The notes beneath the pieces were generated by a model that was given only the letters and a program-made list of their open reading frames with translations, had not been told where the DNA came from and made no database searches. From Promethearchaeota archaeon (GTDB taxonomy: Archaea > Asgardarchaeota > Odinarchaeia > Odinarchaeales > JBHLKK01), in the NCBI GenBank assembly GCA_048939465.1, contig JBHLPL010000054.1, positions 1-12,714 of the forward strand: DNA of 12,714 bases. The letters run 5' to 3'. Positions 995 through 7,094 of this stretch are shown one piece after another. The translations under genes and the position numbers were made by a program. The first letter of the stretch is position 1. The number at the start of each line of letters is the position of its first letter.

Positions 995-1010
995 ACCTTC
1001 CTCTCCGCAA

Positions 1011-1043
1011 GAAGACTCCATCCGGAAGGGTGGAGTAGTTTAC
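1011..1043 (+). repeat. Orphan copy of the IS200/IS605 right end (GAAG guide, hairpin, TAGTTTAC)
   Basis: GAAGACTCCATCCGGAAGGGTGGAGTAGTTTAC matches 2814-2845 (GAAGCCCCATCCTTTAGGGTGGAGTAGTTCAC) at 27/33 positions. The 14-mer AGGGTGGAGTAGTT is exact at 1027-1040 and 2829-2842. Confidence 0.85.
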
Positions 1044-1066
1044 CTACGCCGGTAGTAACCTTTGAC

Positions 1067-2865: not shown

Positions 2866-2898
2866 TAGTTTAGTAACTTGTCGGTGGAGGCAGGATTC

Positions 2899-4989
2899 TT
2901 GCTCCGTAGTCTATATATATTCTCTAAGACCGGTGATACCCTTTTCACCAAATTCTTCGGGGAAGATATGATTGATGAACAGCTATTCTCGGGCTTTGTA
3001 AGTGCACTGTTCTCCCTGGCTCAGGAATTCGGGCATCGGGGCATGGAAATCATGAAAATGGATAATCTGAAGTTCTTTTACGATTTTACCGACAGACTGA
3101 TTTTTGCCATCTCGGCAGATGAAGGGGACGAAGAAATCGCTATTAAGAATCTATTGGCCACGATCCGCGATAGGTTTCTTGAAAGGTTCGGCAAGGTATT
3201 GACAGATTGGAGGGGTGGAGACGTATCCGCATTCAAGGATTTTGAAAGCGACGTCTGGGAGATTACGAAATACGGAATTCCTCCCGAAGGACTGAAACTG
3301 TTTTTGGCTCCTCCTTTCTCCTTTAACAGAAGAAAGTTGAAGAGCGCACGGACTGGGGCAAAGAATCTGGAAGCCGATGTAGACGTATCTCACTCTTTGG
3401 ATAGCGAAATCGCCACAATGTTTGCACTGGTTGAGGATAGGAGATTCAAAGGGAGTGGCTTTCTTAGAAAAAGGCCTGCAGAGACCATCGATTTTATCTC
3501 ACGCATTTTATGGCCTATTTGGTTTGTTAAGATTGATGAAGAGAGATTTATGCCTCTGGACGGCCTGTCCGGAGAAGATCTGTCGGTCCCAAGACTTGAT
3601 ATGAAAAATCTGGAGAATATTGAAAAGGCTATTAAGAAATTGTCTTTGGATGAATCTGTTGAGGGGCTGAGCGATATAGAAAAGAACTTAGCAAAGACTA
3701 TCGATGAGACTATCATTACAAAGGCACTCGTGAGCTTTGAGGTTTTGAAAGCAGTAAGAAAAGTGGCTCCTTATGCCAAATATCAGAGTCTAAATCTGAC
3801 TGCCGCAATTCGCCCCTCACTGTCCTTGAAAGAGGCACTTGGGATCGGTGATAATCTTAGAGAAACTCTGCGAAACACCAACACGATTGCTCTAAAGCTG
3901 GAAGAGGTTGCAAAGGCAGTAGACGAGGTCACTAACAGACTACTCAGTGAGATTGAGAGCGGTGTATCTTCTATTGAGGCGGATTACTCAGGCAAAATCG
4001 AAGAAGCCCAGAAGAAGGTCGACGCGAGAATCTCGGATATCGAGAAAAGGAAGATCCAGGAGCTTAGCCCAGTTGAGCAGTGGAGGGAGGAGGAGCGGAC
4101 AAGAATCGTTAACGAGTTCAGAGTCTTTCTGTTGCCACTAGAGCAGAGTTTTGCGAATCTTTACAATTTGATTAAGACACATTGTGAGAATTTATCGAAG
4201 ACTGAAGAAGTTCGGGCATTCCTTGACATTGTCAATGTTTCTTTTGACCAAGTAACTGAGGCCTTCAAGGAGTCTCAGGCAGTGCTGGACGAGATTAGGA
4301 TCAAAGCGGATCAGTATCTTGAGCAATTAAGAATGGTAGATGAAAGAACTGAAACCAGCAAGAGTCAGATAAACGACAAGTACGAAAACATGGTCAAGGA
4401 GCAAAGAAAGCAGCTATCAGTTTTCAAGGAAGAGAAGGAACGGATGCTGAAGGAGAAGGAGGCTCTCAGGCAATCCATAATCGAAAAGAAAGAAGCGATT
4501 CTTTCCAGAGTCTCTGAGATCAAAGAGAAGTCTCTGAGTGAGGAACATCGTCTCACAGGATTCCTTCTCGAGATCCCCGACCCGTTAAGGATTCAAAGGA
4601 TTTTTAGATTCCACATCCCTCTGTATGTGGCCAAGTATCTCGCTCCAAAGAATGAAACAAGGTATTTTGTGTCGTCTCCCTTGGTCTTTCCCGCTGGGAA
4701 AAATCTGAGGAGAGAATCTTATCTCGAGCAGACGATCCCTGTGGAACCGTTTGATGATGTACTGACAAGCCTGAACATAAATCTGGAAAAAATGATAAAC
4801 GAGAGAAAGAGACTTCAAAAAACCATTGATGCCTCGGCTAAGAAGAGCAACCTCCTTGACAAACCTAAAGTAAGATCCGTCATTGCCGAGGGACTCGATA
4901 AGTTCGAAAGGACCGAGCTGATTAACAGGAAGGATCTCTTGAGATTAAAGGAAGCTCTGGTAGAAGCATTCAGAAAAGGAACAGATTGA
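2899..4989 (+). CDS. Longin-domain / long coiled-coil fusion protein (Asgard-type eukaryotic signature domain); ~696 aa from TTG 2899, 703 aa from TTG 2878
   Basis: The N-terminal ~120 aa (LYIFSKTGDTLF..LFSGFVSALFSLAQEF..LIFAISAD..FLERF..WRGGDVSAFKDF) have the beta-beta-alpha-beta-beta-beta-alpha-alpha longin pattern. About 320 aa of E/K/L-rich heptad helix follow at 3590-4550. SD GGTGGAGG (2883-2890) sits 8 nt before TTG 2899. Confidence 0.8.
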   Translation: MLRSLYIFSKTGDTLFTKFFGEDMIDEQLFSGFVSALFSLAQEFGHRGMEIMKMDNLKFFYDFTDRLIFAISADEGDEEIAIKNLLATIRDRFLERFGKVLTDWRGGDVSAFKDFESDVWEITKYGIPPEGLKLFLAPPFSFNRRKLKSARTGAKNLEADVDVSHSLDSEIATMFALVEDRRFKGSGFLRKRPAETIDFISRILWPIWFVKIDEERFMPLDGLSGEDLSVPRLDMKNLENIEKAIKKLSLDESVEGLSDIEKNLAKTIDETIITKALVSFEVLKAVRKVAPYAKYQSLNLTAAIRPSLSLKEALGIGDNLRETLRNTNTIALKLEEVAKAVDEVTNRLLSEIESGVSSIEADYSGKIEEAQKKVDARISDIEKRKIQELSPVEQWREEERTRIVNEFRVFLLPLEQSFANLYNLIKTHCENLSKTEEVRAFLDIVNVSFDQVTEAFKESQAVLDEIRIKADQYLEQLRMVDERTETSKSQINDKYENMVKEQRKQLSVFKEEKERMLKEKEALRQSIIEKKEAILSRVSEIKEKSLSEEHRLTGFLLEIPDPLRIQRIFRFHIPLYVAKYLAPKNETRYFVSSPLVFPAGKNLRRESYLEQTIPVEPFDDVLTSLNINLEKMINERKRLQKTIDASAKKSNLLDKPKVRSVIAEGLDKFERTELINRKDLLRLKEALVEAFRKGTD

Positions 4990-5342: not shown

Positions 5343-7094
5343 CTATTTCGGCTTCGTCTTAAAAAATGTGGCGATTCCAATGACGAGTATTACGCCGGAT
5401 ACGGCGCCAAAAATCCAAACACTGGAGGACTCATAGGTGTTCTCCCGGACAACCACGGTGGAACCATCGGCAGCAACCGACACTATTACATGCTCTGCAC
5501 CGTCCCTACCGTAGAACAAACTGCCAATTTGGAATTCTCCTTCGTTCTCGTCTTCAAACACCCCGTCATTGTTTATATCGATTTTGATTGCATATCCGCC
5601 CGTGTCATTATAGACTCCATTACTGTTATTGTCTGCAAGTATGACCAGATAGTCCCCGTCTAGGAGGTTCAGGGTACCGTTATAGTACGTTTCGGAGAAT
5701 ATCCTCGCTCTCGAACCATTTCCGGCGAAATCTGTCCGATAAAGCCTTGTATCAATTGTCACGTTGCCATCTAGGGTTGCATTTTCCCCGCTCGCATAAC
5801 TGTTGTTCTGATCAGCATCAATATCAATATGATCGTATACTCCGTCCGAGTCTGCATCAACCAAGACATAATTTAGCTGTCCTGCTGTGTGAGTGAAGCC
5901 GCTTTCGAAGTATGAAAGTGCGGTTATGTTCGCTGAAAGAGCGTAATCCCAGGCGAAATTGAATGCACGGTCCAGCGATACGATGAAGTTGACGCTGGTC
6001 GTTATGAGCAACTCGTCTTGCGTGATATTCTGATCCCCGTTGAGGTCAAAGCACGAGACGTTGAAGACGTTGATTGAGTTATTATCGATGAATACTGCAT
6101 AAATGCTTTCATTTTCGATGGATACACCATCGCCATCCAGGTCAAGATTGAACGCTCTGTAGTGATAGTGTGCCATTATGGTGGCATTGTGGGTGACGTT
6201 TTCCCAGTAAAGCTCGAAGTAATAGCCATTCACTGTAATTGTTGTCTCCGTGCTGTTGAACTTCTCATAGGAATCAAAAGTGTTGTTCTTGTCCAAGTCG
6301 ATATCAATCTGATCGTATACGCCGTTACTGTCTAGATCAACCAGTGTGAAATTGAGGATTTCGAGTGTTTGGTCCTCATCCATATCGACCGAAAAGCCTC
6401 CGTCTCTATAATAGGAAAGGAGGCCGAGGTCCACATATACTGGATCGCCTCCTACCTGGCTTGCGTTCAGAATGAATACCGTGAAATTGTTATCCAAAAG
6501 GGTAACTACTCCTCTGTCAGGTATCGCTGTTGCATCTGACATATTATCGTCGCCATTGAAATCGATATAAACGGTATCCCACACATAATCGCTGTCGTTA
6601 TCATCTATGCCGAACCACAGACTTTGAGTCTGACCTAGAGAAGCATTCACCAGAACCTCTATTTGGCCCCACGTTCCATTATTGAGGGTGGGAGAATCTG
6701 ATACCAAAGGATTGACCGCGAGATTGAAATACGTATCTCCGATTTGCTGGGTACGATTTGTGGCACCGGTCAGGGTTGCGTTAACCAAGGCTGTGGTCTG
6801 ACTCTGGTTGTTAGGTTGCGGTGTGTTATTGACAGGAGAAGTTAGACCGTGATCAAAGTCTGCCCCCGCTTGCGGATCTACCTGGGTGAGAGGGGGGATC
6901 GCCAGTTGCGTTATGGTACGCAGAATGGGCTGACTTGAGAGCGGCGAGTTTGCAGGCGACCCTTCGGGCTCAGAGGTTGTTGCTGTAAGGCTGGTGCTGT
7001 ACTGGGCTGCGCTAACGCCTGATATGAAGAGTGATAGCATTAGGATAGCTGCCAGACTTGTCATTACGAAATGTTGTTTTAGTATTCTTATCAT
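5343..7094 (-). CDS. Membrane-anchored cell-surface glycoprotein with five ~80-aa Dx[DN]xDG-type (putative Ca2+-binding) repeats; ~583 aa from ATG 7094, 595 aa from GTG 7130
   Basis: It has a Sec-type signal peptide (MIRILKQHFVMTSLAAILMLSLFISGVSA-A) and a P/S/T/Q-rich linker. The repeated motif is LVD.DS.GVYD.IDID.D.NN, and there are about 27 N-x-S/T sequons. The C-terminus has a TM helix and a KTKPK tail. SD GGAGG (complement of 7102-7106) sits 7 nt before ATG 7094. Confidence 0.85.
   Translation of the reverse strand: MIRILKQHFVMTSLAAILMLSLFISGVSAAQYSTSLTATTSEPEGSPANSPLSSQPILRTITQLAIPPLTQVDPQAGADFDHGLTSPVNNTPQPNNQSQTTALVNATLTGATNRTQQIGDTYFNLAVNPLVSDSPTLNNGTWGQIEVLVNASLGQTQSLWFGIDDNDSDYVWDTVYIDFNGDDNMSDATAIPDRGVVTLLDNNFTVFILNASQVGGDPVYVDLGLLSYYRDGGFSVDMDEDQTLEILNFTLVDLDSNGVYDQIDIDLDKNNTFDSYEKFNSTETTITVNGYYFELYWENVTHNATIMAHYHYRAFNLDLDGDGVSIENESIYAVFIDNNSINVFNVSCFDLNGDQNITQDELLITTSVNFIVSLDRAFNFAWDYALSANITALSYFESGFTHTAGQLNYVLVDADSDGVYDHIDIDADQNNSYASGENATLDGNVTIDTRLYRTDFAGNGSRARIFSETYYNGTLNLLDGDYLVILADNNSNGVYNDTGGYAIKIDINNDGVFEDENEGEFQIGSLFYGRDGAEHVIVSVAADGSTVVVRENTYESSSVWIFGAVSGVILVIGIATFFKTKPK

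Follow-up and report, generated by a model that had tools for sequence, protein, structure and literature searches.

What does it signify that a sequence resembling the right end of an IS605 transposon lies immediately upstream of the left end of such an element in an Asgard archaeal genome? The arrangement is found in a stretch of 12,714 nt (hereafter 'the window', to which all coordinates without a contig name refer; features are on the forward strand unless stated otherwise), and the sequence-only reading of this stretch described it as a second right-end copy at 1011-1043, followed by a spacer of 23 nt and the left end of the element at 1067. Three origins were proposed there, namely, the scar of an older related element with re-insertion at a hotspot, an imprecise circle or tandem reintegration that captured a guide-sized spacer, and a mini guide cassette used in trans. 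The MAG from which the window comes (G000; 1.96 Mb, 152 contigs, 91% complete) was compared with two congeneric MAGs, G001 and G002 (78% and 82% complete, respectively), whose core genes are 75-91% identical to those of G000.

The intergenic region in question begins after the TAA stop codon (977-979) of an ORF at 662-979, as delineated by the ORF list and the sequence. Directly after the stop codon, there is a tract of eight C and seven T residues (980-996) that resembles an archaeal terminator, and might function as one, and that ends in the pentamer TTTAC (992-996). This pentamer is the insertion target of a 47-nt element at 997-1043, a terminal-only PATE (hereafter 'solo') that was delimited using matches within its own genome, a left-end profile and the empty sites of sibling copies. 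The solo consists of a 19-nt left-end module (997-1015) that matches the family-1 left-end consensus in 18 of the 19 positions, a 20-nt hairpin (1016-1035) with an 8-bp stem (1016-1023 paired with 1028-1035) and the loop GGAA, and an 8-nt tail (1036-1043), the counterpart of a right-end tail, that ends in TTTAC, so that 19, 20 and 8 nt add up to the 47 nt of the element. In this copy, the target on the left and the end of the tail on the right are thus the identical pentamer. The element is too short for coding, and its two ends do not form inverted repeats. The position of the solo directly behind a gene is probably accounted for by the tract itself because an oligo-T terminator that ends in AC offers a TTTAC target.

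The similarity to the IS605 right end that attracted attention to this locus is real. The right end of the element spans 2818-2845 and includes a hairpin at 2818-2837 (loop TTTA, with one C.A mismatch) and a tail at 2838-2845 that ends in TTCAC. Exactly two occurrences of a 26-nt pattern that combines arm, 4-nt loop, arm and tail, 1018-1043 and 2820-2845, are present in the window, compared with none expected by chance (200 shuffles), and the same pair is recovered as repeat family D6, with 85% identity. The better-paired stem and the GGAA loop that had been noted for the upstream copy are confirmed as well: all 8 bp of the stem are formed, and the centroid structure of the DNA consists of this hairpin alone (-7.0 kcal/mol), whereas the right-end hairpin of the IS605 itself, with its C.A mismatch, is missing from the minimum-energy fold. 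The difference between the ends of the two tails, TTAC upstream and TCAC in the IS605, was likewise read correctly. The extent and the nature of the upstream copy were not: the unit is 997-1043 rather than 1011-1043, and the first 19 nt of it make up a left-end module rather than right-end sequence. When the two hairpins are used as the anchor, this 5' part matches the sequence 5' of the IS605 right-end hairpin in only 4 of the 19 positions in direct reading.

The identity of the solo becomes apparent from the rest of its genome. A search of G000 with the segment 980-1160 yielded about 40 matches, all of them within 990-1050 and none in the left end of the IS605, and about 35 were counted for the stretch 990-1046; the best of these are 92-95% identical to the solo stretch, and the closest one (95%), on contig C141, is a PATE left end. 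An nhmmer left-end profile gave 83 matches in this genome. The matches share the 5' part, that is, the 19-nt module followed by the 20-nt hairpin, but split into two classes. In the first class (about 50 copies), sequence from the interior of the element comes after the hairpin, and the right end is reached some 100-350 nt further on, so that these are gene-less PATEs. In the second class, the hairpin is directly joined to the 8-nt right-end tail; this class includes about 14 family-1 copies and 4 copies of a second family (about 18 solos altogether), and the window copy belongs here. The distance from the start of the profile to the end of the tail is 50 nt in every paired solo, which corresponds to the 47-nt element and 3 nt of the target.

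The sizes of the elements are discrete, at about 350, 300, 225, 143, 103 and 47 nt, a graded series that is in keeping with the stepwise loss of internal sequence. Altogether, the gene-less derivatives longer than the solos, at about 103-350 nt, number more than 50. Two of the sizes are represented by single-copy intermediates, on contig C84 (8667-8769, 103 nt) and contig C61 (13282-13424, 143 nt). The longer potential parents of the solos are present in the same genome: the family-1 left-end module also heads PATEs of about 225 nt and a 1.3-kb IS1341-like element on contig C2, which carries the only other tnpB gene of G000, 30% identical to that of the window (tblastn). A similar type of hairpin is present in the window IS605, the C2 element and the PATEs. 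Given that a family-1 left module, a hairpin and a right-end tail are all contained within 47 nt, the sequence comparison identifies the putative extra right end as a whole, collapsed, gene-less element of a family different from that of the neighboring IS605, rather than an orphan right end. The idea of a scar at this site is therefore retained, with the amendment that the scar is that of an entire element from another family.

The boundaries of the solo and the mode of its insertion can be gleaned from the sibling copies. Across 49 left-end modules, there is no sequence conservation upstream until the motif TT[T/C]A[T/C] that directly precedes the element. On contig C88, a tRNA-Pro gene is followed after 39 nt by a solo that G000 and G002 share and G001 lacks; the exact empty site in G001, with the junction after TTAT, fixes the 47-nt unit unambiguously. 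On contig C23, a PATE of about 300 nt is followed, 38 nt downstream, by a solo; neither is present in G001 or G002, where TTCAT and TATAT remain at the empty sites, and both relatives contain host DNA homologous to the stretch that separates the two elements. The C23 pair is, accordingly, the product of two separate insertions into host DNA. At both loci, the insertion occurred precisely after a TTAT-type target, without target duplication.

A less clear-cut case is that of contig C77 (37742-37791), where G000 contains a solo, and the corresponding site on contig C9 of G002 (L062) contains a truncated PATE of another subtype; the TTAT-type site is common to both, and the approximately 70 nt after each element differ, which implies either repeated use of one target or divergent decay. 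Elsewhere on C77, a second cluster (45.3-46.2 kb) is heavily rearranged compared with contig C33 of G002. With the C77 site being ambiguous, no orthologous pair of a full element and a solo was found among the compared sites. For the solo and the IS605 of the window itself, there is no empty site in the two congeneric MAGs, given that the G001 contig ends at the site and G002 lacks the locus, and the window locus was not found in two exact-pattern scans of metagenome contigs.

The dependence on draft assemblies brings up a false join at the repeated hairpin as a potential source of the arrangement. The MAG consists of 152 contigs, and in G001, the ortholog of the upstream ORF has the same ending as in the window, with the contig stopping right after the stop codon, that is, exactly at the site in question. 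The repeat is only 47 nt long, below the typical read length, and the sequences on its two sides lead into coherent genes and into an IS that is complete and has matched ends; hence an assembly artefact is very improbable. The G001 locus differs from the window further upstream: the segments that correspond to 400-630 and 689-984 are 59 nt apart in the window and about 3 kb apart on contig C38 of G001, a difference that is due to an indel located within the two upstream ORFs or in the sequence between them.

The neighboring IS605 can be delineated with confidence using its relatives. In four other Asgard genomes, 30 copies of the left end show variable flanks, then TTTAA in nearly all of them, and then the conserved left end, the first base of which corresponds to position 1066 of the window. 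The location of TTTAA directly before this base in the relatives places the element at 1066-2845 and its target, which is the transposon-adjacent motif as well, at 1061-1065, where the window has TTTGA instead of the consensus TTTAA. Placement of the left end at 1071, behind TTAT, as the PATE families would suggest, was considered; four other copies of the IS cast doubt on it, and it was rejected as incompatible with the TTTAA right before 1066 in the 30 copies. The left end (1066-1149, from the alignment of the Asgard copies) encompasses a 17-nt leader, an imperfect hairpin (1083-1101) and an AT-rich stretch that is promoter-like and might drive the tnpA gene that follows. This gene (1150-1557) encodes a Y1 (HUH) transposase of 135 amino acids (Pfam Y1_Tnp, E = 4.9e-37) and is the only one of its kind: a tblastn search with the window TnpA detected no second tnpA or Y1 gene in G000, a search that a distant RAYT could escape. 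The adjacent tnpB gene (1557-2840) encodes a protein of 427 amino acids with the Pfam domains OrfB_IS605, Cas12f1-like_TNB and HTH_OrfB_IS605, and its stop codon falls within the right-end tail. The flank at 2846-2865 would serve as the omegaRNA guide of the element according to established TnpB biology, as described by Meers et al. in 2023 (PMC10055086) and, reportedly, by Karvelis in 2021; within G000, this flank has no second site beyond the approximately one near-match that is expected by chance.

Further downstream, the 703-aa protein encoded at 2878-4989 contains a weak N-terminal match to the longin or clathrin-adaptor-small-chain domain (Pfam, E = 1.1e-4); the congeners encode several shorter paralogs that have just the longin-like domain in common with it, and an ortholog of the gene was not found in G001 or G002. 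Another, minus-strand ORF, of 595 amino acids, includes a 69-nt direct repeat (5795-5863 and 6275-6343, 75% identity, 480 nt apart) that presumably corresponds to a repeated protein domain.

This IS605 has its closest relatives among the elements of Borrarchaeum MAGs. Its left-end family is represented by a single copy in G000 and is abundant in genomes of the Borrarchaeum type, and its ends align with the copies from those genomes, with subterminal hairpins at both ends, a fixed target and no target duplication. The window TnpA is 86% identical to TnpA encoded in Candidatus Borrarchaeum MAGs, and the DNA of the element is 84-85% identical to copies (L085 on G043:C7 and L086 on G058:C91) that reside in Borrarchaeum-type genomes, which are from a different family than G000. 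The TnpA similarity and the longin-like domain of the neighboring gene are also what the window itself offers in favor of an Asgard affiliation. By comparison, the two congeneric MAGs, whose core genes show the 75-91% identity indicated above, yielded no copy of the element. Taken together, the similarity to the Borrarchaeum copies and the absence from the congeners suggest that the IS605 moved between Asgard lineages. The TTTGA target, against the near-universal TTTAA in the 30 left ends, implies that this copy, the only one in the MAG that carries tnpA, may be impaired in excision and in the TnpB recognition of the donor joint. In IS608, the left-end DNA guide sits 5' of the left hairpin; in the window, the bases 5' of the left hairpin are unchanged despite the substitution in the target.

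Among the Borrarchaeum copies, L065 and L066 are unusual in that their left ends depart from the family consensus over the first approximately 10 nt. In L065 (around 2415-2430 and 4195-4210), the 10 nt at the start of the left end are the same as the 10 nt after the right end, so that the rest of the IS in L065 and L066 is flanked by a 10-nt direct repeat, an odd feature for a family without target duplication that could be a trace of donor-joint repair or of a tandem junction.

With the boundaries of both elements defined, the gap between them can be reinterpreted. A short gap followed by the left end does exist, but the left end starts at 1066 rather than at 1067, and the 22 nt that separate it from the solo comprise 17 nt of ordinary host intergenic DNA (1044-1060) and the 5-nt target of the IS605. 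The assignment of the 17 nt to the host relies on the analogy with the C23 pair and on the lack of a significant match in the genome, where the spacer finds a single match, with 2 mismatches in 16 nt, which is about the chance expectation. The CTAC/GTAG mini-hairpin that was perceived in the spacer is no more stable than expected at random (-1.1 kcal/mol, z = -0.13, with equally good folding in 68 of 200 shuffles). The most plausible explanation of the locus, with a probability of roughly 0.85, is that two independent insertions share one short intergenic region.

Under the alternative in which the solo and the spacer make up a mini guide cassette, an RNA that ends in the 3' flank of the solo would be used by TnpB in trans. 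The one attractive aspect of this scheme is that, in both tnpB-carrying elements, the omegaRNA region terminates on its 3' side with the same hairpin and tail. What precedes the solo is no more than the end of the gene with its stop codon, the C8T7 run and the left-end module, so the omegaRNA scaffold is missing, as had been recognized from the absence of the 5' scaffold stems. Furthermore, the 3' flanks of the listed solos show no visible similarity, Rfam contains no relevant match for the solo region, and the spacer, with the chance-level match in G000 mentioned above, has no second genomic site of the kind expected of a guide, so that the cassette can be practically dismissed. The same holds for an imprecise circle junction, or a tandem reintegration of the IS605, in which a guide-sized spacer became trapped. 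The succession, on a single strand, of a right-end-like tail, a short gap and a left end is what such an event would leave behind, but the upstream piece brings its own target motif and a left-end module of another family, its 5' part is unlike the sequence preceding the IS605 right end, as shown by the 4/19 comparison, the gap ends in the normal target motif of the IS605, and the ends are 22 nt apart rather than abutting; in the parallel case on C23, the corresponding spacer is host DNA.

The proximity of the two elements might still have a cause, such that TnpA bound to the solo hairpin, or replication stalling there, steered an IS605 circle to the nearest TTTAA-like site. Under a crude null model, such closeness is expected in about 4% of the cases, given that approximately 3.7% of the non-coding TTTRA sites have an element module within 60 nt; a second pair on the same strand exists on C23; and the mobile elements of Haloquadratum show a tendency to insert into one another (PMC3119063). 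The arrangement does not recur, however: among the 30 copies in other Asgard genomes, no left end is preceded by a right-end tail at a distance of up to 150 nt, and among the 69 modules of G000, only one is, in the C23 pair itself, close element pairs being rare overall in this genome. Lack of recurrence is one of the two observations that, according to the sequence-only reading, would reduce the arrangement to a simple scar. The established mode of target choice, moreover, is the pairing of 4-5 nt with the left-end DNA guide. A single adjacency is weak evidence of attraction between elements because this case was picked precisely for looking adjacent, and a causal link, including re-insertion at a hotspot as suggested by the sequence-only reading, appears improbable.

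Two independent insertions could have come about in three steps. First, a family-1 PATE, with a left end like that of the C2 IS1341-like element, would have landed directly after TTTAC. Second, recombination or replication slippage between its two near-identical 20-nt hairpins would have removed the interior and left the fused termini; alternatively, the PATE might have arrived already collapsed to 47 nt. Third, a complete IS605, with tnpA and tnpB and a left end of the other family, would then have inserted after a TTTAA-type target, 17 nt further on. A similar collapse appears to recur in a second Asgard lineage and in a second element family, outside the families of G000: in Borrarchaeum-type genomes, solos of about 45 nt that belong to the left-end family of the window IS605 itself were identified at four loci (L110, L113, L120 and L121, in G051 and G058), with the order TTTAA, left module, hairpin and right-end tail.

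The second step would be dispensable if the 47-nt element were itself mobile, as the smallest unit movable by TnpA, and had jumped as such, with the IS605 remaining an independent neighbor. Several observations are compatible with this possibility. The 14 family-1 solos outnumber the approximately 8 full PATEs of about 225 nt with the matching left-module subtype, the two clean presence-absence sites show only the solo form, and a CTTCCTC variant is found in 4 of the 14 solos compared with 1 of the 27 left ends (Fisher p = 0.039), a weak statistic because the variant was chosen after the fact. A comparable possibility has been raised for the 52-bp forms of Haloquadratum by Dyall-Smith et al. 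(PMC3119063). The excess of solos could, however, equally well result from recurrent deletion in one abundant parent subtype, which would produce identical counts. The biochemistry of IS608 poses a further difficulty: there, a TnpA dimer holds two hairpins, whereas a solo offers only one hairpin and one DNA guide. On balance, a jump of the 47-nt form is conceivable but rather doubtful. A slightly bolder version, that solos in general are the smallest functional substrates of the single TnpA, which would employ the one hairpin and its guide for both cleavages, and that they still transpose and hence outnumber their parents, is to be viewed with even more reservation. The solo of the window is, most likely, an inert relic, and would serve at most as a spare TnpA-binding hairpin or as a hairpin in the 3'-UTR of the upstream gene.

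The conclusion that follows is a modest one: the feature in the window is real but ordinary, a relic of a type that is already described, namely, the 52-bp terminal-only PATEs. This result does away with the tempting but wrong notion of a guide-sized spacer trapped between right and left ends, and it defines the layout of the single IS605 with a tnpA gene in the MAG, with the element at 1066-2845, the target TTTGA and 17 nt of host DNA as the spacer. It also extends the repeat-mediated collapse of IS200/IS605 elements to stubs of about 50 nt, known in haloarchaea, to the Asgard archaea. Such stubs are of importance for genome annotation because they mimic orphan omegaRNA 3' ends.

The closest precedent comes from Haloquadratum walsbyi, in which PATEs were defined by Dyall-Smith et al. 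in 2011 (PMC3119063). In that archaeon, deletion between the two near-terminal palindromes converted HqIRS46 (390 bp) and ISHwa23 (1.5 kb) into 52-bp terminal-only forms, the deletion was caught in place at an orthologous site in four cases, and the authors asked whether the resulting stubs are mobilized (PMC3119063). Like those 52-bp forms, the Asgard solos are gene-less IS200/IS605 derivatives with fused termini and a single near-terminal palindrome, are about 50 nt long, show no terminal inverted repeats and no target duplication, use a 4-5-nt target, and occur alongside full PATEs in which the two palindromes are directly repeated. They differ in the host, which is an Asgard archaeon, in the length of 47 nt and in their unrelated sequences, and no deletion in place at an orthologous site was detected in the genomes compared here.

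A second point of reference is provided by the ISGst families of Geobacillus stearothermophilus, in which PATE-like elements are served in trans by one TnpA, and a left-flanking motif is common to TnpA, as the target, and to TnpB, as the TAM (Meers et al. 2023, PMC10055086). As in that bacterium, many non-autonomous elements in G000 have ends similar to those of one tnpA-bearing IS; the ISGst PATEs often retain the omegaRNA scaffold (PMC10055086), which the solo lacks. By the same token, the near-identical hairpins suggest that the window TnpA might act on the solo family.

The solos are also reminiscent of the REP and BIME sequences associated with RAYT (TnpA-REP), which are short, dispersed extragenic hairpins tied to IS200/IS605 ends and often located after genes. 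Unlike those, the solos are single and not arranged in inverted pairs (none of which were seen in the pair listing of G000), and they carry the left-module and right-tail sequences of resident elements. Finally, although they belong to another class of transposons, and the recombining unit would be a 20-nt hairpin, the solos may be likened to solo LTRs, as remnants of recombination between the direct-repeat ends of an element.
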